Shown here: positions 1 to 34,044 of the stretch, one piece after another
How positions within the stretch are numbered: the first letter of the stretch is position 1
How the letters are laid out: each line of letters begins with the position of its first letter
The notes under the pieces: model-generated
Database searches by the model: none
Told to the model about the DNA's origin: nothing
Seen by the model: the letters and a program-made list of their open reading frames with translations, nothing else
Assembly: GCA_028709215.1 (NCBI GenBank)
Contig: JAQVXI010000004.1
Location: 70,874 to 134,873 of the forward strand
DNA: 64,000 bases
Source of the DNA: Bacteroidales bacterium
GTDB lineage: Bacteria; Bacteroidota; Bacteroidia; Bacteroidales; UBA1402
Reading direction: 5' to 3'
Translations under genes and position numbers: made by a program

Positions 1-1335
1 TGCAACGACACAGTCTAACCATCCTTCGCTTAAATTAGCCGCTCTGCACTTGGATGAAAGCACATCTTGACTTATTGCAACAGGTAAACTATTGAGCCTA
101 TTAACATAAACTTTCTCTGCTTCTGTTGCTTCACTTTCTAATTGACTTTTAATAAACGTTTCAAAAGAAGATAATCGTTCTTTAGCATCGTCATTTAATG
201 GTTGATGACACAAAACACACCTTGTGCCATCTCCGATATTGGGGTATCCCGTATTTCTATATGCTTCTTGAAGAGAGAAAGTACGTGCTGCTTCCCATAA
301 AGATTTCCAAACCTGGCTGCCAACGCCCTGCAATTTGGATTTGTTTGCAATAATTTGTGCACTATCTTGGGCTATTTTACGCTTACTAATTGCATCATCC
401 ATTAATCCTTTTGTTGCTTTTCTTGCATCAAGATTTATTTGTATATAAGCCTCTGTAATTTCTCTGATAATTTTGTCGATTTCTGATTTTTGTTTTCTTT
501 TTTCTACTGCACTTTTTGCAGGGTCTTTTTCTTTTAGTCGCTTTTCAAGTTCTAATTTTATTTGTTCATTCGTTTCGTCCCAAATCAATATGCTTGCAAG
601 TTGTGACTCTGTCTGATTCTTATTTAGGTTATTATATACTCTTGAAAAATTTGTTGTTGAATATTCGACAGGAATAGTTGGTAGCGTTTTTACCAATCTT
701 TCACTTTCGTGCTTCAATTCTTGTTCAATTACTGAATAATAACGAGAAAACGCCTCAAAAAGCGCCACGCATTTTGGCGTGTACGCTACGGTATTTGCTC
801 CTTCAATATAACCATTCCCTGTATTCGTATCAAAGACATCAATTCCTGCTAAATCAGATATAGAACTATTGTTTATACTCCATTCTCTTGCTTCCTCAAA
901 ATCATCAATTGTATATTTGATGGTACATTTACTCCCATTAGAACCTTCATTATAAACATTTGGTTTTAAATCCTTGGCACGAGGTTTTCCACTGATCTTT
1001 TTGATGATTTTTGTATAACCAGATTTCCCAGATCCATTAGAGCCATATATCACAATTAGATTTTTATCTTTCTCAAATATCAACGGATTTCGTGGGGCTA
1101 AGCTTTCGATATTCTGAATGGATTCAATGGACAATAATCTAATTTGCTTTTCGTCCGTGGGCTTTACAAAATTTGGAAATGCTTTATCGACGAAGGTTGC
1201 ATTCGATTTTACCATTGTGATAATATCTGAGATGTCGGATTCTTCAATATTTTTTGTAAGAATCCGATATGCCAGTTCGGTTTGCCACCCTTTTAGGGTT
1301 TTAAACCAATCAGTTACCTCTTTCTGTGTATCCAT
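1..1335 (-). CDS. AAA_13-family (PrrC/RloC-like) ABC-type ATPase, N-terminal 445 aa only; the C-terminus lies beyond the left window edge
   Basis: My own minus-strand translation from the ATG at 1335 (absent from the ORF track because it runs off the edge): MDTQKEVTDWFKTLKGWQ... Walker A YGSNGSGKSGYTK (about nt 1021-1044). Long Lys/Glu-rich, coiled-coil-like stretch. CVLC (CxxC, nt 208-219) sits where RloC/Rad50-type zinc hooks occur. Confidence 0.7.
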   Translation of the reverse strand, partial: MDTQKEVTDWFKTLKGWQTELAYRILTKNIEESDISDIITMVKSNATFVDKAFPNFVKPTDEKQIRLLSIESIQNIESLAPRNPLIFEKDKNLIVIYGSNGSGKSGYTKIIKKISGKPRAKDLKPNVYNEGSNGSKCTIKYTIDDFEEAREWSINNSSISDLAGIDVFDTNTGNGYIEGANTVAYTPKCVALFEAFSRYYSVIEQELKHESERLVKTLPTIPVEYSTTNFSRVYNNLNKNQTESQLASILIWDETNEQIKLELEKRLKEKDPAKSAVEKRKQKSEIDKIIREITEAYIQINLDARKATKGLMDDAISKRKIAQDSAQIIANKSKLQGVGSQVWKSLWEAARTFSLQEAYRNTGYPNIGDGTRCVLCHQPLNDDAKERLSSFETFIKSQLESEATEAEKVYVNRLNSLPVAISQDVLSSKCRAANLSEGWLDCVVA

Positions 1336-1637
1336 TTCAGTCCCTTTTTTAATACTAATCACTCGTTTTTCTAACCTCATTCATCTCCCCACAATCACAC
1401 AACCTGAAATTGATACCGTGGTGCCGTTCCAACTTGTGTTCGTGAAAATGTCCGTAATACCAATCGGTTATGTTTGTCTGCCGTTCCTGTAATTTTCAGA
1501 TTTACAGTGCATAAAATTGGTGCAACGCTGTCGCACTTTTCATAAATATTTCCTCATAAGAAAGAAATTCACGAGATAGTTGAGAACATCTATAAAATGT
1601 GAATATGGGCTTTTCTGTCCACACTTTTGGAATACTC

Positions 1638-2087
1638 TCATTTGATTGTTTCATTCTTTTCTGCATTATTTTTTTCTTCAATTGATGGATGCTTACCACC
1701 GCCATGCCACGTGCCAGTAACAAGCCACAGCTCGTAGTGAAATAACCATTCAGAAGTCCATGGAAAAATTGTATGAACCAAATACTTCGAATGATTCCAC
1801 TCATTACCATCTGGATAGTATAAACACAAACATTGTTCCTCGTGAGAATAAATATGGGGTAATTGAGTTTTCCCATTTGCCAATGCCAGTGGTTTAGGAT
1901 TGATAACATAAACAGAAACACCATCTTTAAATGAATAGTTAATTCTAATTCGATACGTCAGACTATTAGGTGTTGGCGTTATATCCCCTTCCCAAATGAT
2001 TTTACGTCCTCCTTTGTGGATAAACTGTCCATTAGGAAAGTATGATTGAATGGATCCAATCTGATGTCTCATTTCTATGCTACTCAT
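1638..2087 (-). CDS. stand-alone E2/UBC-like protein, 149 aa (E2-only CBASS accessory, type II-short style)
   Basis: Track ORF 1638..2141 trimmed to the ATG at 2087 (MSSIEMRHQ...), which overlaps the upstream stop by 8 nt (GATGAGTAG). The segment LPHIYSHEEQCLCLYYPDGNEW resembles the HPN...CL active-site segment of UBC/prokaryotic E2 folds. Trp-rich helix region FPWTSEWLFHYELWLVTGTW. Lies immediately downstream of a CD-NTase. Confidence 0.6.
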   Translation of the reverse strand: MSSIEMRHQIGSIQSYFPNGQFIHKGGRKIIWEGDITPTPNSLTYRIRINYSFKDGVSVYVINPKPLALANGKTQLPHIYSHEEQCLCLYYPDGNEWNHSKYLVHTIFPWTSEWLFHYELWLVTGTWHGGGKHPSIEEKNNAEKNETIK

Positions 2088-3300
2088 CCTCGATGTTCCC
2101 AAAAAAATTGTGACCTGCAACAGTAGTTCTTCCAATCGCACCTAACATACCCGTTGTTGCAGCCATTTTTAACGTACCATTAGAACTTGAATCTTTGGAC
2201 GCTCCTCCGAAGTTGCTAAAAACCGTACTTGTTAAAGTCTCTCCAAACATCTGCTTCATTGTAGTACTTAACTTTGGCAATCCTTGTCCTGAGTCTGCAA
2301 TAAGCACATTTAAATCACTACGCAACTGTTGAATCCATAGATAGAAGTTTTGCTCTTTTTTAGGTTCTTTTTGCCATTTATCAGCAAAATTTTCCTCTGG
2401 ATTTACGGGATTTGCAACCCATTTAACACCCATTCGATCTTCAATATACATAGGCATTTTACGAACAATATTATCCAACGTATCAAAAATAGTGGTCTCA
2501 CCTTGATAGGATCTTGCCGCTAACGTGGTAACAATGATAGAGATTGGCTTGTTTTCATTTCCATCAAACATTATATCCCTATGTCGTTTAAGTAATTGAA
2601 CCACTCTTTGAAGAGGTAGCTTTGTTTTGTTGAATTTTGGAATGGGTGCAATGGAAGCACTTAGTGAGAACGATCTTCTCAATTCTGAAGGCCTTGTTGC
2701 GATGTTAAAAAACCATTTTGCATAACCAAATGGATTGCTTTTGAACCAGTTTTCAATATTTTTTTCTGTATAATAGTCAGATCTTGTTTTATCTGTTATT
2801 CTAATAGCAAGGCTGTCAACATTTTGTTGTTCAATCTCAGAAAAGGATTGCTCAAGAATTCTTTGATAGTTCTCATTTACAAAACAAGGAAGAATATCCA
2901 TGTGATATTTTCCCTTAGCATATTTCAATGTCCAACAACGTTTGCCTTCATTATTCAACATCGATTTGTAGGTGTTATTTTCTTTTATACGATCTCCGAC
3001 TGCGTTTTTCAAGTTATACTGAGTCCAGGCAGAAGGTTTTCGTTTAAGTTGACAGACTAAGTCTATATCTAAATCATCGTCATCAGAAACAGGATGCACC
3101 ATTGTGCCAAGCATAAACGAACCTTGGGGTAAAATCGCTGGATCATATTGTTGTAACGAACTTGAATTATCCGCCAGCCATGTTCCCATAGCTCGATAAC
3201 TAGTAACAATTGCATCATATTCGGTTTCAGTAATGTCTAATGCCTTTCCAAATTCATTGAAAATACTGCTGAATTGATCTTTCTGTGATTCTGTTATCAT
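2080..3300 (-). CDS. cGAS/DncV-like nucleotidyltransferase (CD-NTase; SMODS-type core with AGS-C-like C-terminal half)
   Basis: 406 aa. Pol-beta NTase signature PQGSFMLGTMVHPVSDDDDLDIDLV (GS...DxD), with the third acidic residue in KYHMDILPCF. A Gly/Ser/Thr/Ala-rich tail of about 50 aa. ATGA overlap with the upstream SAVED gene. Confidence 0.8.
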   Translation of the reverse strand: MITESQKDQFSSIFNEFGKALDITETEYDAIVTSYRAMGTWLADNSSSLQQYDPAILPQGSFMLGTMVHPVSDDDDLDIDLVCQLKRKPSAWTQYNLKNAVGDRIKENNTYKSMLNNEGKRCWTLKYAKGKYHMDILPCFVNENYQRILEQSFSEIEQQNVDSLAIRITDKTRSDYYTEKNIENWFKSNPFGYAKWFFNIATRPSELRRSFSLSASIAPIPKFNKTKLPLQRVVQLLKRHRDIMFDGNENKPISIIVTTLAARSYQGETTIFDTLDNIVRKMPMYIEDRMGVKWVANPVNPEENFADKWQKEPKKEQNFYLWIQQLRSDLNVLIADSGQGLPKLSTTMKQMFGETLTSTVFSNFGGASKDSSSNGTLKMAATTGMLGAIGRTTVAGHNFFGNIEDE

Positions 3301-4451
3301 ATTATTTCATTTTTAATCGTGATTACTGGAACATCTTCATCTAAAGCTGTATTATAATCATATAGAACCATTTCCATATCGGCTTTTGGCATCCATACAC
3401 GTCCTAACTCAATCGCACAAGCTACAGGCATTGCCATAAATATGTGTAAAATAGTTTGTCCGGTTGATGTTCTTATTTCATCCAAAACTGACCTTACCAA
3501 GGTGCGAAATTCCGATAATTGTTTTTCACACTTTAGCATATCATTATTGGGGAATTTAGCAGTAAATACCCAGATACTTGCTTGATCACCCAATCGTTCA
3601 CGAATTCGCTTAGAAATAGCATTAGCACTTAACGCAAAGATCAGTACCGTTTTTTTCGTAGTATCAGATGGGCGATTGATAATAAATTCATTTGCCCCAT
3701 CTCTTTCTAACCAATCCCAAGTGTCTGGCTCTCTGTGTTTCTGATAAACCTTAACATTTTGCAAATCAGAGAAGAGCGTTCCTAATTTAACCAATAATGG
3801 CTGAGTAGCTAATCCAAACACAGAAAAAGAGGCTTCTCCAATTTCAGAGATTAGAGGTTTAACCCTCGTGTTAAAAGCTGACACAATTTGCTTTTCGTTG
3901 ACAGCCCAATAGTCATTGGAGTTATCTTTAAATTCAGAGTTTTCAATACCCAAACAAATCGGTTTATCACTAAAAGGAAAATCTCCTTGTTTGAGCATTG
4001 AATTTACAATACTCTCAAAGTTTATTGAGGGGATAACACCTCCAATATTTGCCCCCATCAGAATAATATGTGACTTGTTTTCAGGCTTATATCCGCACAT
4101 CCGTTCAATTCTATCCTCATGATTCTTCTTCATTTCACGAAGACTTTCAACAGAATGTTCCAAATGTTTAGATTCATCAATTCGGTTGTGGCATTCATCG
4201 CACAGGAGCAACAAATTTGATAGATCAAGTTCTAATTCCTTTGACCAAAACCAATGGCCACGGGGTCCATTTTCTTGTGCTGCAACAATATGTGAGATAT
4301 ATGCTTTGTTCATTTGACGTTGAGTCAAAGAATCTTTCCAGAGAGGTGTATTACAATACTCGCATCTACCACCCGCTTTAACCCATAATTTGCAGGAAAC
4401 ATTTGTTGGAATCGATTTCCTAACTCGTTTTATTTTATTATTCTCTGACAT
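3297..4451 (-). CDS. cap5: Cap5-type CBASS effector: N-terminal HNH endonuclease fused to a C-terminal SAVED sensor domain
   Basis: 384 aa. HNH with zinc ligands: GGRCEYCN ... YISHIVAAQENG ... LLLLCDECHNRID. C-terminal SAVED-like pattern: SFSVFGLATQPLLVKLG ... ILHIFMAMPVACAIELGRVW. The start ATG is 2 nt after the hsdM stop. Confidence 0.8.
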   Translation of the reverse strand: MSENNKIKRVRKSIPTNVSCKLWVKAGGRCEYCNTPLWKDSLTQRQMNKAYISHIVAAQENGPRGHWFWSKELELDLSNLLLLCDECHNRIDESKHLEHSVESLREMKKNHEDRIERMCGYKPENKSHIILMGANIGGVIPSINFESIVNSMLKQGDFPFSDKPICLGIENSEFKDNSNDYWAVNEKQIVSAFNTRVKPLISEIGEASFSVFGLATQPLLVKLGTLFSDLQNVKVYQKHREPDTWDWLERDGANEFIINRPSDTTKKTVLIFALSANAISKRIRERLGDQASIWVFTAKFPNNDMLKCEKQLSEFRTLVRSVLDEIRTSTGQTILHIFMAMPVACAIELGRVWMPKADMEMVLYDYNTALDEDVPVITIKNEII

Positions 4452-4453
4452 AT

Positions 4454-5983
4454 TTAAAATCCCAAATCCTTTAAATATTCCTTCATTTTGCCCTGTACTT
4501 CGGCAAGTTCCATTTCCAATGCCGTAATTTCCTGCTGCACCGCTGCAATGTCAATTTCTTCTTCCTCTTCGAACGTATCCACATAGCGGGGAATGTTCAG
4601 ATTAAAGTCGTTCTCTTCGATTTCTTTAAAAGTGGCAACATAAGCATATTTTTCTTCGATCACGCCGGCTTGGATTTCGCCAGCTGAAAATTTCCGATAA
4701 GTAGAAACGATGTGCTCAATATCCTGTGAACGAAGTTTGTTTTGATTCTTGCCGTTTTCAAATTCTTTGCTGGCATCAATAAACAGCACATTAGTCGTCT
4801 TTTTTCCTTTGTTGAACAGGACGATTGCCGCAGGAATACCGGTGCCGAAAAACAGATTGGAGGGTAATCCGATAACAGCCTCCAGTAGATTTTCTTCAAT
4901 GGTTTGACGTCGGATTCTTCCTTCACTCGCTCCACGAAACAGCACCCCATGAGGAACAACAACGCCCACTTTTCCCGTTCCTTCATAAGCCACTTCTATC
5001 ATGTGACTGATAAAAGCCCAGTCGCCTTTACTCTTTGGGGGAACGCCGCGCCAAAAACGATGATAGGGATCGTCGGCAGCTTCATCGGCACCCCATTTAT
5101 CCAAACTGAAGGGAGGGTTTGCCACCACCGTATCGAATTTCATCAAGGAGTCGCCCTCTTTCAGTTTGGGTGTTCGAAGCGTATCGCCCCAGCGAATAGT
5201 GGCACTATCAAAACCGTGAAGAAACATATTCATCATCGCCAGAGCCCAGGTACTGCCGTTTAATTCCTGCCCGTAGAGAGAGAAGTTGTTGCCATCCACC
5301 TCTTGCCCTGCCTTAATCAACAAAGAGCCGGAACCGCATGTGGGGTCGCAGATTCTTGCACCGGGTTTACTTTTAGTCAGTTTGGCCAACAACGAGGAGA
5401 CTTCCGCAGGAGTAAAGAAGTCTCCGGCTTTTTTCCCGGATTCACTGGCAAAGGTGGAAACTAAAAACATATAGGCATCTCCAATCACATCGTTCCCCTC
5501 CAAATGCGATTCGTCAAAGCTCATTTTATCACCCGAAAAATCAATCAATAAGTTCTTCAGGCGTGTATTCTTATCTTTTGTATCCCCAAGATTACTACTG
5601 TTAAAGTCTATGTTGCGGAAAATTCCACTGCCATCTTCACTGCTCATCTTCTCCCGATTAGCCTCTTCAAGATCGGCAAGTGCGATGTTTATTAGCTCTC
5701 CGATCTTGTTATCGTTTCGATGTTCGAACAGGTAGTCAAAGGAACTATTTGAAGGGACTACAAAGCGTTCGTGACGCATGGCCCTGTCTGCTCTTTCTGT
5801 ATCACCGTCATATTTATCTATATACTCACTGTATTTTGACTTATAAACATCACTTACATATTTGATAAACAGCATGGTAAGAATGTAATCCTTGTATTGA
5901 CTGGGGTCTATGACACCTCTGAAAGTGTCACAAGCTTTCCATACGATGCGGTTAATATCTGTTTGATTGATTTTGATTTCCAT
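4454..5983 (-). CDS. hsdM: type I restriction-modification system methyltransferase subunit HsdM
   Basis: 509 aa. HsdM_N-like N-terminus (RIVWKACDTFRGVID). SAM motif I DPTCGSGSLL. Catalytic motif IV VVANPPFS. Confidence 0.92.
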   Translation of the reverse strand: MEIKINQTDINRIVWKACDTFRGVIDPSQYKDYILTMLFIKYVSDVYKSKYSEYIDKYDGDTERADRAMRHERFVVPSNSSFDYLFEHRNDNKIGELINIALADLEEANREKMSSEDGSGIFRNIDFNSSNLGDTKDKNTRLKNLLIDFSGDKMSFDESHLEGNDVIGDAYMFLVSTFASESGKKAGDFFTPAEVSSLLAKLTKSKPGARICDPTCGSGSLLIKAGQEVDGNNFSLYGQELNGSTWALAMMNMFLHGFDSATIRWGDTLRTPKLKEGDSLMKFDTVVANPPFSLDKWGADEAADDPYHRFWRGVPPKSKGDWAFISHMIEVAYEGTGKVGVVVPHGVLFRGASEGRIRRQTIEENLLEAVIGLPSNLFFGTGIPAAIVLFNKGKKTTNVLFIDASKEFENGKNQNKLRSQDIEHIVSTYRKFSAGEIQAGVIEEKYAYVATFKEIEENDFNLNIPRYVDTFEEEEEIDIAAVQQEITALEMELAEVQGKMKEYLKDLGF

Positions 5984-5993
5984 ATAGTTGAAA

Positions 5994-6554
5994 TTATTTT
6001 GTTGCGTTTAATAGTAATTGATTGGATAACTGCCTGGCTTTTTCTGTAATTTGCATACGTAGTGCGTACTCTTTTTCTTGCAATTGGTTACACTGGATTA
6101 TTTTACGTTGTATGTCTATAATAGGTACGTTGATTTCCAATTCTGCCAACATTTCTTTTGTTATGGATGGAGTAGCACTGCCTACGGCATTGAATTGCAA
6201 TTTTTTAAGAACTTGTGGGGTGTTAATGTACCAACATAGATATTCCGGCAAAACAGCAGTACGGCTAACCCTAATCACAAAAAAAGCACTCGATGCAACC
6301 GCTTTGCCCATCGTTTCACGATACAGGACACAAAAATTTGAAGTTCCTTTCGCTGCAAACAATAAATCCTTGTCTATAAGTGTGTATTTCGCTATTTTGC
6401 CACTGTCTATAATGGATGGTTTTAGCTCTCCATCCGCTAAATACGAAGATTTTAAATCTTTCACTTGCAGATACAGCAGGTCTCCATCTGTAACTTCTTT
6501 TTGGTAAGTTCCGGAAGTTATTTCTGCAATATCTGTCAGTTTTATTGTATTCAT
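5994..6554 (-). CDS. hsdS: type I R-M specificity subunit HsdS, half-size (single target-recognition domain plus one conserved helical region), 186 aa
   Basis: Track ORF 5994..6611 trimmed to the ATG at 6554 (MNTIKLTDIAEITSGTY...). One TRD followed by a C-terminal coiled helix (PIIDIQRKIIQCNQLQEKEYALRMQITEKARQLSNQLL). About half the usual ~400 aa. Ends 10 nt upstream of hsdM. Confidence 0.8.
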   Translation of the reverse strand: MNTIKLTDIAEITSGTYQKEVTDGDLLYLQVKDLKSSYLADGELKPSIIDSGKIAKYTLIDKDLLFAAKGTSNFCVLYRETMGKAVASSAFFVIRVSRTAVLPEYLCWYINTPQVLKKLQFNAVGSATPSITKEMLAELEINVPIIDIQRKIIQCNQLQEKEYALRMQITEKARQLSNQLLLNATK

Positions 6555-6581
6555 ATTTTTATCAGTAATAAAATTACGATG

Positions 6582-6589
6582 CAAATATA
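6582..6589 (-). promoter_or_regulatory. Bacteroidetes-type -7 promoter box (TATATTTG) upstream of hsdS
   Basis: The minus strand reads TATATTTG, matching TAnnTTTG, 28 nt upstream of the hsdS ATG at 6554. It is the only consensus box I see ahead of the hsdS-hsdM-CBASS gene string. Confidence 0.45.
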
Positions 6590-7018
6590 TTAAAATTTTA
6601 CATAACAACAAAATAATCTAAGTATATTCATTACTCAAATTACAAGATGTAGCCATGGAATTTACTTCTCTTTAAATATACGGATTGATTTTTAAAGTTT
6701 TTGTCATTCGTAGCATTTACTTTTTAGCTTTAATACTCGATAGAATCGGCAATTCTCGTTACCCAATCTATTTTCTTAACAACTCTACTCTTTCCACCAC
6801 AAACCAGACAACCACCTTCTACAATGATGATTTCAGATCGTTGAATATCTGTGAGAGAAGCTTTCTGACAATGTGCAGATATCTGGAAATCCAATCTTTT
6901 GTTTCATGGTTGGAGATTTAAAGCTGGTAAAGTAAACAAACCAAAACGACATGGCTTGACGTTTATCGGATTAGTTTCACTGTTTTCTATACCCTTTTCC
7001 TTTTGGTCGCTGCGTTTT

Positions 7019-8023
7019 TTATAATCTTCTGCCCTTTTTCTTTCTTCGTTGCATAAGCCTGCGAAACTCAGCTTCTTCAATATTCTCAGCAAGGTTTGCA
7101 TCGAACGGAATGTCTAGCAAACCACCAATTGTTGAAACAACTTCGGCTGCCGCATCACTTACCGGTTGCAGAGAGTCGGAAACGACGTTTGAAGTATTTT
7201 TTCCGAAAGATTGCACCAGATTTTGAGCGTGGATTTGTGGATTATATTCTTTGTCTGATTTTCTTGCATCACTCCATTGATTCTGATGCGCCTTTACTAT
7301 TGCAAACATTCGCATCAAATTCTTGTGACTAAACTTGCGGTCAATCTGAGAGCCTTTGAATGTATAATCGTCTTTCTCAAACGAAACTCCTTCTATAATA
7401 TCCGTTCCTCGGCGGCACTTAAACTGAATGGTAATCCCGTGTGGTTTGAGGTTTTCCGCCAACATTTGGTAATCCGCACTCTTTGGCAAAACCTCTTTCA
7501 TTGCGTCGCAAACCGCATACTTCGCCTTGTCCGCTCCGTATCGTTTCGGACGGTTTACACGCACCTTTCCTTTTCCATAAGTGAGCTGGTAGCGATCTTT
7601 CAGCTTTTTGCAGACAGCTATATTCCTTTTGTAATCGTTATTGACCGAAATAAGCTTCCGGCAGTTGTCGTTGTGTTCTTTAAACACGCCGTAGAGCGTT
7701 TTCGCATGATCGTCTTTACCCTGATAGTGGTTGACGATAGCACGGGGTGAAATGATTTTACCCTCAAGATCCATCTCCTGAAAAATCCTGAAAAACTGCA
7801 CGCGCAGTGAGTCGATGTAGTAGTTCAGATCATTTGATTTGCGATCACGCCCTGTGGCTCGTTCTTTGGGTTGCGACCAAAGTTCAGAGGGAATACTGCA
7901 TTTTAACTGCATCTCAACATACTGTTTGTCGTAGGTAATGCGCACACGCAGCGGTGCTTCGCCGTTTCTGAGTAGTTTTGATTTCTTGGTGTAAAACAAA
8001 ACCGAGAATCTTTTTCTTTCCAT
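7019..8023 (-). pseudogene. chimeric mobile-element remnant: tyrosine-integrase N-terminal arm-DNA-binding domain fused in frame to the C-terminal part of a Bacteroidetes MobA/VirD2-type relaxase
   Basis: 334-aa intact ORF. Residues 1 to ~125 (RFSVLFYTKKSKLLRNGEAPLRVRITYDKQYVEMQL...WSQPKERATGRDRKSNDLNYYIDSL) look like the arm-binding N-terminus of CTn/NBU integrases. No integrase catalytic core follows. Instead the rest looks like a relaxase C-terminus (LKPHGITIQFKCRRGTDIIEGVSFEKDDYTFKGSQIDRKFSHKNL ... RRKKKGRRL), without the relaxase N-terminal catalytic Tyr/His motifs. Confidence 0.6.
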
Positions 8024-8210
8024 AAAGTCCGTTTTTTTAGTTAGACAAAGTATGGAACACTACCAGACATTAGAGAAAATAGAATAGTGCAAAATACTGA
8101 ATAACAATCATTTGTAGGGTTATTCGTGGGACTTTTTGAAAGTCTGAAAAGTCCCCTGTTTAAGGCCGTGAGAGGCACTCAAAAAGGGCTTATTTTGCCT
8201 ACTCTGAGGA

Positions 8211-8247
8211 ATAAAAAATCCCCGATTTTCTTTGAAAATCGGGGATT
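8211..8247 (-). terminator. rho-independent terminator downstream of tRNA-Phe
   Basis: Perfect 13-bp stem (8217-8229 AATCCCCGATTTT with 8235-8247) and a 5-nt loop. On the minus strand it is followed by TTTTTTAT. Confidence 0.75.
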
Positions 8248-8272
8248 TACGTCGTTTTGAATCTTTCTTTTG

Positions 8273-8345
8273 TGGTGCCACCAGGAATCGAACCGGGGAC
8301 ACAAGGATTTTCAGTCCTTTGCTCTACCAACTGAGCTATGGCACC
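8273..8345 (-). tRNA. tRNA-Phe (anticodon GAA), CCA encoded
   Basis: The minus strand reads GGTGCCATAGCTCAGTTGGTAGAGCAAAGGACTGAAAATCCTTGTGTCCCCGGTTCGATTCCTGGTGGCACCA. Hand-folded cloverleaf with anticodon loop CTGAAAA. There is one C:U mismatch in the T stem by eye. Confidence 0.9.
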
Positions 8346-8361
8346 ATTGCTTTAGCGGCCA

Positions 8362-8369
8362 CAAAAGTA
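8362..8369 (-). promoter_or_regulatory. -7 promoter box (TACTTTTG) for tRNA-Phe
   Basis: The minus strand reads TACTTTTG, matching TAnnTTTG, 17 nt upstream of the tRNA 5' end. Confidence 0.45.
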
Positions 8370-8453
8370 CGATGGCTTTTTGGATTATCCAAATACCTCA
8401 ACGTTTTTTTTTAAAAAAAATCGATTCGTGTTGCCAATCGAAAAACCTTTTCA

Positions 8454-8461
8454 TACATTTG
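8454..8461 (+). promoter_or_regulatory. -7 promoter box (TACATTTG) for tRNA-Pro
   Basis: TACATTTG matches TAnnTTTG, 15 nt upstream of the tRNA-Pro 5' end. Divergent from the tRNA-Phe promoter. Confidence 0.45.
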
Positions 8462-8475
8462 CATCCGAATTCAAT

Positions 8476-8548
8476 CGGGATGTAGCACAGTTGGTAGCGC
8501 GCTACGTTCGGGACGTAGAGGTCGGAAGTTCGAGTCTTCTCATCCCGA
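8476..8548 (+). tRNA. tRNA-Pro (anticodon CGG), CCA not encoded
   Basis: CGGGATGTAGCACAGTTGGTAGCGCGCTACGTTCGGGACGTAGAGGTCGGAAGTTCGAGTCTTCTCATCCCGA. Anticodon loop TTCGGGA. The acceptor stem CGGGATG/CATCCCG is typical of tRNA-Pro. Confidence 0.88.
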
Positions 8549-8555
8549 CAGAATG

Positions 8556-8596
8556 AAAAGGGCTGATGCATAAACAAAGATTGCATCAGCCCTTTT
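8556..8596. terminator. bidirectional intrinsic terminator between tRNA-Pro (+) and the thioredoxin-family gene (-)
   Basis: 15-bp stem AAAAGGGCTGATGCA (8556-8570) pairs with TGCATCAGCCCTTTT (8582-8596). The A-run and T-run flanks give a U-tract on both strands. Confidence 0.8.
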
Positions 8597-8620
8597 TAAT
8601 TACTGGATCCTCCGGGATGA

Positions 8621-9727
8621 TTATTTTCCGAAGATCTCTTCTAAACGCTGACTCAAAGCCTCACCGCGCAAGTCTTTGGCTACAATCTTGCCTTCGGGGT
8701 CCAGTAGCACGGTGTGGGGAATTGAAGAGAAAGCATACAAATTGACCGCAGTACTTTGCCAGCCTGCCAAATCAGACATATGTGGCCAAGAAAGTGTGTG
8801 CGTTTCAATGGCGTTTTTCCATGCATCCCCATCGGTATCCAAAGACACGCCGACAATCTCAAAGCCTTTGGAGTGATAAGCTTCATAGGTCGCTTTTAAA
8901 TGCGGTATTTCACGAATGCAGGGACCACACCAGGAAGCCCAGAAATCAATCAACACATACGAACCTTTACCCGCTATACTGGAAAGCAAAAACGGGCTCC
9001 CATCGGGAGCATTCATTTCCAACTCGACAAACGGTCGACCCGGAATAACCCGATGTGCCTTGCGCGATATCTCGGCGATCATTTGCATAAATGGCTGTTC
9101 AAGGGCGGTGGCACTCGCTGCAGCCAGCACTGCGTCCAAATCCTCTAACTCCATATACTGAACCGTAGACTTCAAAATATGCATCCCAGCTGGATTATTG
9201 ATATTATCGACGACTTTTTGCGTGGAGAAAGCACGCATATCCTGCTCAAAACGCTCGTAGGAGGCCGAATAAGCCTCAAAAGCCGCTTGATCCTCCCGAT
9301 TCTGTTGGTAGACACGCATGGTTTGCATCAAGTCCTCAGAAAGCGCTCGAAAATCCCGGTCAAAGTCCTGATAGATGGCATTGATCTCACCACCGGTAAA
9401 GGCCAATCGACCTTCAACTTCCGCAACCTCTACACGAGGTTCCATAAAAAAATCACCCATCAACGAGCGCTCACCTTGAGCATCCTGAATCACCAAAAAG
9501 AACCAGCCAACAGAATCTACGCGACCGGACAACTCAAAACTGTCCCCTTCAATCAACACAGAGTCCAACGCCAGAGCCTCTTGTCCTTGATCCTCCGTAA
9601 ATGGATAGAGGAGCACCTGATGACCATTTTTGGACGCATCGGCCAGTGATCCGTGAATCAAATACGTCGATTTTCCGGAACAGGAAATAAGCAATGCCGA
9701 TAGAACGGCAATCATGATAGTTTTCAT
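8621..9727 (-). CDS. TlpA/AhpC-TSA family thiol:disulfide oxidoreductase lipoprotein
   Basis: 368 aa. Lipobox LLISCSG. Thioredoxin active site DFWASWCGPC in the C-terminal domain. Confidence 0.85.
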   Translation of the reverse strand: MKTIMIAVLSALLISCSGKSTYLIHGSLADASKNGHQVLLYPFTEDQGQEALALDSVLIEGDSFELSGRVDSVGWFFLVIQDAQGERSLMGDFFMEPRVEVAEVEGRLAFTGGEINAIYQDFDRDFRALSEDLMQTMRVYQQNREDQAAFEAYSASYERFEQDMRAFSTQKVVDNINNPAGMHILKSTVQYMELEDLDAVLAAASATALEQPFMQMIAEISRKAHRVIPGRPFVELEMNAPDGSPFLLSSIAGKGSYVLIDFWASWCGPCIREIPHLKATYEAYHSKGFEIVGVSLDTDGDAWKNAIETHTLSWPHMSDLAGWQSTAVNLYAFSSIPHTVLLDPEGKIVAKDLRGEALSQRLEEIFGK

Positions 9728-27272: not shown

Positions 27273-30266
27273 TTACTTTTCGTCTTCGTGATCTTCGTCG
27301 TGAATACCCAATTGCTTCTTCTGAATATCATAGGCTACCGGAGCCGCAATAAACAGCGTAGAGTACGTTCCGGTAATCACACCCACCAACATGGCAAAGG
27401 CAAATCCACGAATGGTATCCCCTCCAAACAGGAAGATGGCCAATAACACAACCAAGGTACTCAACGAGGTACTAAATGTACGAATCAAGGTCATATTCAT
27501 GGATTCATTCATCAACCGCTTTTTGTTGCGTTTCGGATAATAACCAACCATTTCACGTACACGGTCAAAAATTACGACCGTATCGTTGACCGAATAACCG
27601 ATGATGGTCAAAATTGCAGCAATAAAGGTTTGATCGATCTCAAGAGAGAAAGGCAGGATGTTGTAGAACAAAGAATAGATACCGATGATCAACAACACAT
27701 CGTGTGCAATCGACGCCAGTGCTCCCATACTGTATGAGATGTTGCGGAATCGAAGCAAAATGTACAAGCCGATAATAATCAAGGAAAAGAAAATCGCCCA
27801 CACGGCCGCACGCTTGACATCATCCGCAATGGATGGACCAACCTTCTGAGAATTGAGTACGTGGATTGTTTTAAATTCATCCAGTGTGACGGTTTCTGCC
27901 AAATACGGCTTCATTCCTTCATACAACAAGGCTTCCAATTCATCGTCAACGGTGCTGCTTTCATCATCGATACGGTAGTTGGTGGTTACACGCACCTGAT
28001 TTTCCGATCCAATGGTAATGACAGAAACCGATGCGTTCTCAAACTGAGCCTGAACGCTGTTTAACACGTCGCTGGTCTGAACCGGTTGATCGAAGCGCAC
28101 CACATAGTTGCGACCACCTGAGAAATCAACCCCTTGACTCAAACCCCGTACAAAGAAGGAAACAACGGCTATCGTCAAAATGGTACCGGATATGATGTAA
28201 CCAATCTTACGTTTTCCGATGAAATCAAAATTATTGTTGCTCAGCAAGTTTCGTGTTAATTTGGTATCAAACGTCAGATTGAGCAATTTATCCTTGGCGT
28301 GGAATGCTTCAAAAATCAAACGCGTAATAAAGACACCCGTAAAGACAGAGGTCAAAATACCAATAATCAACGTAGTTGCAAAACCTTTGATGGGGCCGGT
28401 TCCAAAATAGAACAAGACGATACCGGTCAACAAAGTTGTTATATTTCCGTCCAGAATGGCGGACAAAGCATTCTTGTATCCATCCGCAAGCGCCTTCTTC
28501 ATACCCTTACCGGACTTTAACTCTTCTTTGATGCGCTCATAGATCAACACATTCGCATCGACGGCCATCCCCAGCGTAAGAACGATCCCCGCAATACCGG
28601 GCAAGGTCAATACGGCTTGGAACGATGCCAGAATACCAAACAGGAAGAAAACATTGATCAACAAACTTGCATCGACGATCAACCCGGCAATCACACCGTA
28701 GTTCATCTGCATATACAGCAAGACAAGGACAAAGGCGATCAGGAACGAAATAAAACCGGCACGAATGGCCTCCGCTCCCAAGGATGGTCCAACGACATCT
28801 TCCTGTACAATGTGTGCAGGTGCAGGCATCTTACCCGACTTCAACACATTGGCCAAGTCCTTTGCATCATTGGCAGAAAAATTCCCGGTAATTTCTGAAG
28901 AACCTCCGGCAATTTCGCCCTGCACACGAGGATACGAATAAACATACCCGTCCAAAACAATGGCAATGCTACTTCCAATATTATCTTTGGTCAAACGAGC
29001 CCATACTTTGGCTCCTTCGGCATTCATACTCATATTTACCTTCGCATAGCCGGTTGTCTGATGGAAATCATCGCGCGCATCCGTAATGACATCACCTTCC
29101 AAAGGCGCTCTTCCATCACGACTAGTCACCTTCAAAGCAACCAGTTCGAATAAAGGCGTTTTTACATCCACCGGATTGACAGACCAGGCAAACTTCACGT
29201 CACGTGGCAATACTTCTTTGACCTTACGCTCATTCAGATAACGATTGACCGTTGCGGTATCACGTCCCAGGGCATACCCTACGACAGGACCGGAACCGAC
29301 ACCCTGTTCCGATTGGTTGAGTTGTAATACGGAAAACAAAGGATATTCCTTTTTCCATTCTTCAAAACTGGCAGCCTCATCCGTAGAATCGGTTTCACCC
29401 AATTTGGCCAACAAATCGTCTTCGACGGACGTTTCAGCCTCAATCGTTTCTTCCGTTTCTTCTAATGAATCGATCGCAGCATTTTCCTCCGTGACTCCTA
29501 CATTTTGCATGTCACGAACAATGTTGTTCGCCAATACAATGGACTCATACAATTGAGAGAACTCATACGTTTCCCAAAATTCCAGATTGGCAGAACCTTG
29601 CAGCAACTTACGAACACGTTCGGGTTCTTTGACACCGGGAAGTTCGATCAGAATGCGTCCGGTACCCTCCATTCGCTGAATATTGGGTTGAACCACACCG
29701 AAACGGTCGATACGGGTACGCAAGACATTGAACGAATTCTCAATGGCAGAATTTACTTCTCCACGCAAAACTTCCAAAACTTCTTCATCGGTCGATTGCG
29801 GTGTAATGCGACTCTTTAATTCAAACGTACTGAAAATAGCAGACAGACGTGCGCCCGGATCCAACTTCTTGTACGACTCATAAAATAAGTCTATATAATT
29901 CTTCTGACTGGATTTCATTTGCTCGGAAGCCTCGGCCAGTGCCTTGTTGAACGTCGGATCCGGATGCTCGTTGGAGAGGGCACGAATCACATCCGGAATG
30001 GATAATTCCAAAATGACATTCATTCCTCCCTTGAGGTCCAAACCCATGTTGATCACTTTTTCACGGCATTCAGCATAAGTCATCCCCAGATAAACCTTTT
30101 CGGTTTCCAGAGAATCCAAATAATACGCCAATCGATCCGAGTCGCCCATGGATAATGCCTCTGCTTTCTTTTCAACGCGATTGCTGACAACCGTAAAGGA
30201 AAGGTAGTAGAGACACACCAGAGTGAGCAATACGGCAAAGATTCTAACAAATCCCTTGTTTTGCAT
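27273..30266 (-). CDS. secDF: protein translocase subunit SecDF (fused)
   Basis: 997 aa. Typical Bacteroidetes SecD-SecF fusion with 12 predicted TM segments and a large periplasmic loop. N-terminus MQNKGFVRIFAVLLTLVCLYYLSFT. Confidence 0.92.
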   Translation of the reverse strand: MQNKGFVRIFAVLLTLVCLYYLSFTVVSNRVEKKAEALSMGDSDRLAYYLDSLETEKVYLGMTYAECREKVINMGLDLKGGMNVILELSIPDVIRALSNEHPDPTFNKALAEASEQMKSSQKNYIDLFYESYKKLDPGARLSAIFSTFELKSRITPQSTDEEVLEVLRGEVNSAIENSFNVLRTRIDRFGVVQPNIQRMEGTGRILIELPGVKEPERVRKLLQGSANLEFWETYEFSQLYESIVLANNIVRDMQNVGVTEENAAIDSLEETEETIEAETSVEDDLLAKLGETDSTDEAASFEEWKKEYPLFSVLQLNQSEQGVGSGPVVGYALGRDTATVNRYLNERKVKEVLPRDVKFAWSVNPVDVKTPLFELVALKVTSRDGRAPLEGDVITDARDDFHQTTGYAKVNMSMNAEGAKVWARLTKDNIGSSIAIVLDGYVYSYPRVQGEIAGGSSEITGNFSANDAKDLANVLKSGKMPAPAHIVQEDVVGPSLGAEAIRAGFISFLIAFVLVLLYMQMNYGVIAGLIVDASLLINVFFLFGILASFQAVLTLPGIAGIVLTLGMAVDANVLIYERIKEELKSGKGMKKALADGYKNALSAILDGNITTLLTGIVLFYFGTGPIKGFATTLIIGILTSVFTGVFITRLIFEAFHAKDKLLNLTFDTKLTRNLLSNNNFDFIGKRKIGYIISGTILTIAVVSFFVRGLSQGVDFSGGRNYVVRFDQPVQTSDVLNSVQAQFENASVSVITIGSENQVRVTTNYRIDDESSTVDDELEALLYEGMKPYLAETVTLDEFKTIHVLNSQKVGPSIADDVKRAAVWAIFFSLIIIGLYILLRFRNISYSMGALASIAHDVLLIIGIYSLFYNILPFSLEIDQTFIAAILTIIGYSVNDTVVIFDRVREMVGYYPKRNKKRLMNESMNMTLIRTFSTSLSTLVVLLAIFLFGGDTIRGFAFAMLVGVITGTYSTLFIAAPVAYDIQKKQLGIHDEDHEDEK

Positions 30267-34004: not shown

Positions 34005-34036
34005 TGCTTTTTTGTTGCATTGAATAAAAAATATCG

Positions 34037-34044
34037 TATATTTG
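34037..34044 (+). promoter_or_regulatory. -7 promoter box (TATATTTG) for the tRNA-Gly/tRNA-Leu pair
   Basis: Matches TAnnTTTG, 29 nt upstream of tRNA-Gly. Confidence 0.45.

Follow-up and report, generated by a model that had tools for sequence, protein, structure and literature searches.

The 64,000-nucleotide stretch of Bacteroidales DNA analyzed here (the window) very probably carries, on its minus strand, an intact type II-short system for anti-phage signaling based on cyclic oligonucleotides (CBASS). The system is composed of a clade-G cyclase (CdnG), a stand-alone E2 protein, and the HNH-SAVED effector Cap5; it is expected to operate by the mechanism standard for such E2-CBASS and appears to be facultative cargo of a type I restriction-modification (R-M) operon. 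An initial annotation of the window, made by reading the sequence without database searches, had proposed a three-gene CBASS. The locus is present at 1638 to 4451 as described, and all of the motifs quoted in that annotation were found in its open reading frames (ORFs). The annotation missed that the cassette apparently lies within a type I R-M operon, beside the defense candidate PDC-S06. The finding is a further member of the well-characterized E2-CBASS with CdnG and Cap5, one more intact system in a family with thousands of members, and what it adds is only the apparent cargo position in a Bacteroidota type I restriction operon and the variant arrangements found in relatives.

The three genes of the CBASS locus

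Proteins were compared with the Pfam, NCBIfam, and PADLOC profiles, and AlphaFold models were compared with solved structures with Foldseek. The locus contains the following features, taken from the ORF list of the 64-kb window.

4451..3297, minus strand: cap5, HNH-SAVED effector nuclease, 384 amino acids (Pfam, PADLOC, AsCap5 7RWK)
3300..2080, minus strand: cdnG, clade-G nucleotidyltransferase of the cGAS/DncV-like kind (CD-NTase), 406 amino acids (SMODS, PADLOC, VcCdnG/SmCdnG)
2100..2083, minus strand: codons of CdnG G401 and of the tail N-I-E-D-E, predicted conjugation glycine and leaving peptide
2087..1638, minus strand: E2, stand-alone CBASS E2, 149 amino acids (PADLOC, PF26395, 8HSB_B)

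The third ORF extends from 2141 to 1638 and would encode 167 amino acids from a GTG codon; an internal ATG at 2087 yields the 149-amino-acid E2. As the initial annotation had noted, all three genes overlap, cap5 and cdnG by 4 nt (ATGA) and cdnG and E2 by 8 nt, and these overlaps suggest that the three genes are translationally coupled. The annotation had also singled out the position of the effector gene at the head of the cassette. The order is correct, but it is no peculiarity. In a gene-order survey that recovered 80 of 496 related CdnG loci from species-representative genomes, Cap5 was encoded directly upstream of CdnG in 42 loci, downstream in 10, and was undetected in 28. Effector-first order is thus the norm for this CdnG subfamily and not a distinguishing feature.

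The 384-amino-acid protein matched the SAVED families of Pfam (E value, 4.7e-44) and NCBIfam (2.1e-44) and, over its whole length, the PADLOC model for CBASS endonuclease effectors (1.1e-135). The Pfam HNH match was slightly over the gathering score (2.4e-4). The nearest solved structure was AsCap5 of Asticcacaulis (7RWK; 7.2e-73, full-length alignment), and other Cap5 structures came next. The motifs C30-E-Y-C33, S-H54-IV, and C84-DE-C87-H88-NRID are present, as is the SAVED-like pattern HIFMAMPVACAIELGR. The zinc cysteines C30, C33, C84, and C87 and the HNH residues H54, N79, and H88 are all kept. R240, S275, and R282 align with R234, S274, and R281 of Lactococcus lactis LlCap5, which bind 3',2'-cyclic GMP-AMP (3',2'-cGAMP), the proposed role of R234 being to distinguish the 2'-5' linkage (Fatma et al. 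2021, PMC8568899).

The 406-amino-acid protein matched the Pfam SMODS (2.5e-14) and DncV-like NTFase (2.3e-10) families and the PADLOC cyclase model (1.7e-135). Its nucleotidyltransferase signature consists of G60-S61 and D78-I-D80, with the third aspartate in H-M-D135, and G60, S61, D78, D80, and D135 were invariant among 27 aligned homologs. The closest solved homologs were VcCdnG (9WOO; 1.7e-64) and SmCdnG (8HSB_A; 2.6e-40). Clade-G BdCdnG (7LJN) and BfCdnB (7LJO) both scored at ∼1e-6, a sequence score that does not by itself separate these two. With the AlphaFold model, which was built on the 27 homologs (pLDDT, 79; pTM, 0.81), Foldseek placed SmCdnG (8e-17) and Bradyrhizobium BdCdnG (2e-10) above CdnB, CdnD, DncV, and CdnC. 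The cyclase was assigned to clade G from this ranking of matches by sequence and predicted structure rather than from a reference phylogeny. Consistent with the assignment, S188 and Y193 (in K-S-NPFG-Y) are the counterparts of S167 and Y172 of SmCdnG, lid residues that are specific to CdnG. The family is large, with ∼3,900 homologs at E values of ≤1e-20, and the 496 loci in species-representative genomes are nearly all from Bacteroidota; the closest CdnG among GTDB representatives was 56% identical.

CdnG ends in H397-N-F-F-G401-N-I-E-D-E, that is, with a tail of five residues past G401. Most of 120 CdnG homologs end similarly, in H-N-F-[FYH]-G followed by one to five mostly charged residues, and a minority have S, K, or T in place of N or have P or N in place of the first F. 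Glycine occupied the G401 position in all 120 (listing read by eye), and both H397 and G401 were invariant in the 27-sequence alignment. Because this glycine is conserved in the homologs and is equivalent to G406 of SmCdnG, G401 is the predicted conjugation site, and NIEDE is the predicted leaving peptide.

The 149-amino-acid protein, described in the initial annotation as similar to ubiquitin-conjugating (UBC) enzymes, had no match in a local Pfam scan, and its identity was settled by PADLOC, a sequence search of the Protein Data Bank (PDB), PF26395, and a fold search. It matched the PADLOC E2 models (4.2e-49), and an identical 149-amino-acid product has a precomputed match to PF26395 (E2-CBASS). 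The E2 of the Serratia marcescens CBASS (SmE2, 8HSB_B) was matched by sequence (2.1e-20) and was also the best fold match to the AlphaFold model (pLDDT, 85.6), with a TM score of 0.74 and an E value of 6e-8. The next fold matches were to eukaryotic UBC/E2 and UFC1 folds, at nonsignificant E values. Both of the expected motifs, P-H78-IY and C-L-C88-LY, were found; H78 and C88 were invariant and H133 was nearly invariant among 33 aligned homologs. In a pairwise alignment, C88, H78, H133, and K139 correspond to C101, H87, H152, and K159 of SmE2. Thus, every catalytic or conjugation residue that has been defined experimentally in homologs is kept in Cap5, CdnG, and E2.

No E1 adenylation domain and no JAB (Cap3) protease was detected among all window ORFs from 8023 to 1 or in the full operon of L166, a contig 97.35% identical to window positions 6644..1, in which two small ORFs had no significant matches. 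Because both the E1 and the JAB protease are missing, the type II-short classification put forward in the initial annotation holds.

Comparison with characterized systems and proposed mechanism

The best structural match for CdnG and E2 was the S. marcescens E2-CBASS (SmCdnG-SmE2; PDB 8HSB/8YJY; Yan et al., bioRxiv 10.1101/2022.05.25.493364; Xiao et al. 2026, PMC12948482). The Serratia E2 performs trimming by itself: C101 and H87 strip the residue past SmCdnG G406 (E407, in Y405-G406-E407) and join G406 as a thioester, K159 takes G406 as an isopeptide, and H152 controls the interconversion of thioester and isopeptide (Yan et al., bioRxiv 10.1101/2022.05.25.493364). The window system has in common with it the Cys/His pair of a stand-alone E2 (C88/H78 here; C101/H87 in Serratia), the second histidine (H133/H152), the C-terminal lysine (K139/K159), and a long clade-G cyclase that ends in an aromatic residue and glycine followed by a removable tail, with no E1 and no JAB protease. 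The two systems differ in that their proteins are only ∼26 to 31% identical (Foldseek), the tail past the glycine has five residues here and one in Serratia, and the host belongs to the Bacteroidota rather than the Gammaproteobacteria.

The CdnG-Cap5 systems of Asticcacaulis sp. and L. lactis (PMC8568899) and of Vibrio cholerae 365-96 (PMC12804361) are likewise three-gene type II-short systems, which encode Cap5, CdnG, and one further small protein. Asticcacaulis AsCap5 and Vibrio VcCdnG are the closest solved homologs, and the R/S/R residues that contact the ligand in SAVED are kept. In V. cholerae, the IMG identifiers of cap5 and cdnG run consecutively, starting with cap5, an indication that the gene order there is the same (PMC12804361). 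The operons of these three organisms were described as stand-alone, whereas the window cassette apparently forms part of a type I R-M operon.

EcCdnG-Cap2-Cap3-Cap5 of Escherichia coli TW10828 (Hobbs & Kranzusch 2026, PMC12991175) also combines a clade-G cyclase with Cap5 and signals with 3',2'-cGAMP, but it has an E1-E2 fusion (Cap2) and a JAB protease (Cap3) where the window system has a stand-alone E2 only. Clade-G cyclases are reported to have a central activation loop that is cut by phage prohead proteases (Hobbs & Kranzusch 2026, PMC12991175), and the most variable internal segment of the CdnG family alignment, residues ∼199 to 228 in the window protein, sits where the protease-sensing loop of EcCdnG sits, counted from the catalytic aspartates. 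The model is less confident there (pLDDT, ∼71). The reports of protease activation concern clade-G cyclases outside the E2-only systems.

By analogy with these homologs, the following mechanism is proposed. The operon would be transcribed, jointly with the type I R-M genes, from a promoter upstream of hsdS', the half-size specificity subunit gene at its head. The C88/H78 pair of E2 would remove the CdnG tail N402-E406, and G401 would be linked first to C88 as a thioester and then, as an isopeptide, to the C-terminal lysine (K139) or to other CdnG molecules. This trimming and conjugation would prime and regulate CdnG. Infection would then activate the cyclase, perhaps through a phage protease cutting the loop at ∼199 to 228, as has been reported of other clade-G enzymes, and CdnG, with D78, D80, and D135, would make a cyclic dinucleotide, most likely 3',2'-cGAMP. 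Binding of the signal by the SAVED domain (R240, S275, and R282) is expected to cause oligomerization of Cap5, whose HNH domain (H54/N79/H88 and the zinc finger) would degrade DNA, so that the infected cell dies ahead of phage release.

Several points weigh against this reading of the locus. The CdnG product, the covalent CdnG-E2 link, the activation of Cap5, and phage defense itself are all extrapolated from homologs, and these homologs are distant, SmE2 and SmCdnG being those at ∼26 to 31% identity, although VcCdnG and AsCap5 (1.7e-64 and 7.2e-73, respectively) are nearer than the Serratia proteins. The equivalence of the putative activation loop to that of EcCdnG is one of position, and a pLDDT of ∼71 is only moderately low. 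Many Bacteroidales E2 homologs stop just past H133 and have no lysine tail, which means that the isopeptide step is perhaps not a general one. The downstream hsdS and hsdR genes lie beyond window coordinate 1 and are known from the 97%-identical contig only. Finally, cap5, cdnG, and E2 differ from their L166 counterparts by 2, 4, and 9 nt, respectively, which is too few to show selection. With its five-residue leaving peptide, and with many relatives that have no lysine tail, the locus offers a clean Bacteroidales case for asking whether the E2-only conjugation and self-trimming described from one Serratia system hold in gut-type Bacteroidota.

The prediction of 3',2'-cGAMP as the most likely messenger was made because this molecule is the product of AsCdnG, VcCdnG, and EcCdnG and is sensed by AsCap5, LlCap5, and VcCap5. 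It is possible, but somewhat unlikely, that the same architecture signals with another molecule, such as 3',3'-cGAMP, a different cyclic dinucleotide, or a trinucleotide. The CdnG product was deduced from homologs only, the products of CD-NTases can vary inside one clade, and CdnG scored 79 bits against the NCBIfam equivalog model for cGAMP synthases, for which the cut-off is 150. Furthermore, F304 of LlCap5, which stacks on the ligand, is replaced by N303 in the window Cap5; however, asparagine is also found at this position in AsCap5, which responds to 3',2'-cGAMP. The three nearest characterized systems (AsCdnG-AsCap5, VcCdnG-VcCap5, and SmCdnG) use 3',2'-cGAMP or cGAMP, and the conservation of the lid residues S188 and Y193 in CdnG and of S275, R282, and the proposed 2'-5' linkage discriminator R240 in Cap5 also argues for 3',2'-cGAMP.

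A probable type I restriction operon around the cassette

The cassette is flanked by the following features.

6612..6582, minus strand: match to a Bacteroidota-type promoter, TTTG-N19-TAtaTTTG (pattern scan)
6554..5994, minus strand: hsdS', half-size specificity subunit with one target-recognition domain, 186 amino acids, first gene of the operon (Methylase_S, 1.8e-10)
5983..4454, minus strand: hsdM, type I R-M methyltransferase (N6_Mtase, 2e-101; HsdM_N, 1e-26; TIGR00497, 8e-87)
1643..1400, no strand assigned: 244-bp spacer between E2 and PDC-S06 (comparison with contig L084)
1380..1, minus strand: N-terminal part of PDC-S06, a defense candidate and SMC/ABC-type ATPase, running past the window edge (PADLOC PDLC04893)

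The hsdM stop codon lies 2 nt ahead of the ATG of cap5, and the operon order is hsdS'-hsdM-cap5-cdnG-E2-PDC-S06, followed outside the window, to judge from L166, by hsdS, further genes, and hsdR. The sequence to the left of window coordinate 1 was deduced from contigs L166 and L084. The order in L166 is hsdS' (186 amino acids), hsdM, cap5, cdnG, E2, a 50-codon ORF, PDC-S06 (858 amino acids), and hsdS (428 amino acids), after which come two ORFs of unknown function, RhuM/PDC-S05, hsdR (1081 amino acids), and a YgjP-like gene. In L084, which is 98% identical, hsdS also lies behind PDC-S06. A half-size hsdS upstream of hsdM is kept across the related restriction-linked loci, besides a full-length hsdS farther downstream in L166 and L004. 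The half-size protein may confer an alternative specificity, act as a homodimeric S subunit, or be a regulatory remnant. The exact HsdM of the window had no match on record.

Promoters of Bacteroides have a consensus of their own, and the pattern TTTG-N17-23-TAnnTTTG had 7 matches in the 64-kb window versus 2.6 expected. Three of these lie directly upstream of hsdS' (28 nt before the ATG), tRNA-Phe (8362-8393, minus strand), and tRNA-Gly (34011-34044, plus strand), and there was no match on the minus strand between 6582 and 1. A sigma-70 promoter scan, which returned fewer sites than were found in shuffled sequence, was discarded as not applicable to Bacteroidota. The G+C content of the CBASS genes is ∼36%, compared to 44 to 50% for hsdM and ∼47% for the host flank, a contrast that fits insertion of the cassette into a preexisting operon.

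The portion of PDC-S06 within the window matched PADLOC PDLC04893 at 4.2e-123 (445 amino acids from the ATG at 1335), and the full-length 858-amino-acid protein of L166 (5407-7983) and L084 matched at 7.4e-285. No nuclease domain was identified in PDC-S06. By eye, a CxxC motif (R-C-V-L-C-H) in an apparent coiled-coil insert recalls the zinc hook, of the Rad50 kind, found in restriction-linked proteins of the RloC/PrrC type. The 244-bp spacer ahead of this gene is probably a relic. It is missing from L084, where E2 abuts PDC-S06. A 50-codon ORF (1654..1502) and, at 1536..1520, a weak hairpin resembling a terminator are associated with it. The ORF had no family match and no homologs outside near-identical contigs. 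When considered as a repeat or a miniature inverted-repeat transposable element, the spacer proved to be single-copy in the window and was found elsewhere in near-identical contigs only. The string NITDWYYGHFH was tried as a metallophosphoesterase motif and was rejected as not significant (E value, 1.6).

Defense genes embedded in type I R-M loci have been described before, among them PrrC, TgvAB (PMC11411939), and the DarTG2/RptR island (PMC12255303), and the approach of "guilt by embedding" (Payne et al., bioRxiv 10.1101/2024.01.29.577857) defined the PDC families, PDC-S06 and PDC-S05 included, on the basis of genes that lie within BREX, DISARM, and type I R-M systems. The window locus resembles these in that its cargo lies on the same strand as hsdS' and hsdM and just behind them, probably ahead of hsdS and hsdR as well, to judge from L166 and in part L084, and next to a member of a candidate family (PDC-S06; PDC-S05/RhuM in L166). 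The slot differs, being hsdM to hsdS here and hsdS to hsdR in the DarTG2 island (PMC12255303). A three-gene CBASS figures in none of the worked examples of the papers cited here for embedded defense, and Payne et al. make no mention of CBASS in their main text. A limited literature search found no description of an E2-CBASS in a type I R-M position.

The simplest reading is that the CBASS is facultative cargo embedded in the hsdM-to-hsdS slot, because the same restriction lineage has CdnG-E2 in 23 of the 80 recovered CdnG loci but other cargo in the closest relatives. For the latter, metagenomes were searched with an HsdM alignment, and the 80 closest relatives (70 to 87% identical) were kept; their hsdM-to-hsdS slot held Fic, Bro-N, metallophosphoesterase, and unknown genes. 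By the same simplest reading, defense cargo, CBASS included, has been taken up again and again in insertion bays of this restriction lineage. The locus thereby documents exchangeable bays in the hsdM-to-hsdS and hsdS-to-hsdR slots of one type I restriction lineage, with CBASS, PDC-S06, RhuM/PDC-S05, Pycsar, TIR, Fic, and Bro-N genes among their cargo, and should be useful for guilt-by-embedding searches and for the question of whether restriction and abortive infection are coregulated.

A broader proposal, considered unlikely, is that the CBASS forms one layer of a single cotranscribed and cotransferred multilayer immune operon, in which expression or activation of abortive infection would be tied to the restriction layer. 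If true, it would point to a recurrent Bacteroidota design, with some relatives interleaving cdnG-E2 and cap5 with hsdS or pairing cdnG-E2 with CapV and a second cyclase.

It also seems quite unlikely that the CBASS is more than cargo in the sense of having a functional link with the type I restriction enzyme, whether by shared regulation or by cross-talk between restriction failure and the cyclase. The close spacing speaks for such coupling: cap5 begins 2 nt past hsdM with no consensus promoter between them. In the 23 linked CdnG loci, an hsdM of the same lineage (62 to 79% identical) lies upstream on the same strand; as judged by the ends of tblastn hits, the apparent gap is ≤30 nt in 15 of them, and hsdR is found downstream in 17. 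In several relatives hsdS even lies between cdnG-E2 and cap5, and the restriction-linked CdnGs are spread over several separate branches of a rough neighbor-joining tree without support values, in which the window CdnG pairs with that of L004 and the restriction-linked loci do not form one tight clade. However, such an hsdM is missing from the other 57 of the 80 CdnG loci, and it is a known and general feature of type I R-M operons that unrelated defense genes are embedded in them. Among the 65 HsdM relatives with at least 1.5 kb of downstream sequence, none had CdnG behind hsdM, and the same slot was occupied by Fic, Bro-N, metallophosphoesterase, or other genes. Obligate coupling of CBASS and restriction is likewise unsupported by these 65 relatives.

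Several arrangements were observed among the relatives. In L007, L008, L014, L020, L059, and L082 the order is hsdS'-hsdM-cdnG-E2-hsdS-cap5-...-hsdR (e.g., L008:7873-19554), so that hsdS splits the cyclase/E2 pair from the effector, with overlapping stop and start codons. In L010:10001-15002, L042:10001-15338, L071:10001-14874, and L053:3741-7709, hsdM-cdnG-E2-hsdS is followed by a patatin/CapV-type phospholipase effector, and three of these four loci have a second, shorter CD-NTase; no Cap5 was found in their retrieved flanks. In the CapV loci, two cyclases may share a single effector, or the CdnG-E2 pair may be an orphan. The closest GTDB relative, a Muribaculaceae metagenome-assembled genome (MAG; L004:8496-15054), has defense genes between hsdS and hsdR, namely, DUF1883-TIR (PDC-S66/ThsB-like), a phosphatase-like ORF, and Pycsar (two PycC cyclases and PycTM), which amounts to at least three signaling defense systems within one restriction operon.

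Host, transfer, and integrity of the island

The initial annotation had placed the system in a Bacteroidota genome, and this agrees with the window SecDF (27273..30266), whose nearest named relatives, at 65 to 71% identity, are from Bacteroidales MAGs. Two features lie upstream of the operon.

8345..8272, minus strand: tRNA-Phe (GAA), island border (ARAGORN, Rfam)
8023..7019, minus strand: chimeric 334-amino-acid ORF with an integrase Arm-DNA-binding N terminus (Arm-DNA-bind_5, 6.4e-16) and a TraI-middle-like C terminus (TraI_middle, 2.8e-3, below threshold)

The Rfam scan of positions 1 to 9000 found two tRNAs only. A stretch of ∼1.55 kb between tRNA-Phe and hsdS' (∼8197..6644) probably remains from an integrative mobilizable element. 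It is missing from L166, in which ∼140 nt separate the 3' end of tRNA-Phe from hsdS'. No att-type direct repeat of the tRNA-Phe 3' end of ≥12 nt was found in the window or in L166. The tRNA-Phe flank (8197-8299) is 78% identical to L166, compared to 97.35% for the island. This contrast suggests that the whole island recently moved by horizontal transfer, entering a different host background at the same position beside the tRNA.

CBASS proteins that are identical to those of the window, or up to 96 to 98% identical, were found on short contigs from several sequencing runs, and near-identical intact copies of the CBASS are present in L001 to L003, L084, L085, and L166 to L169. Retention of all family-invariant residues supports the view that the CBASS genes are functional. 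For the neighboring genes, ratios of nonsynonymous to synonymous substitution rates against L166 were 0.06 for hsdM and 0.28 for PDC-S06, which indicates purifying selection. It is very unlikely that the cassette is intact only by chance, as a decaying or silent passenger of a degraded mobile element: the flanks do show signs of turnover (the chimeric integrase/relaxase remnant and the 244-bp relic), the CBASS genes are low in G+C compared to the host, and their few substitutions relative to L166 give no measure of selection, but the three ORFs are full length with their overlapping start and stop codons preserved, near-identical copies recur across sequencing runs, and both neighbors are under purifying selection.

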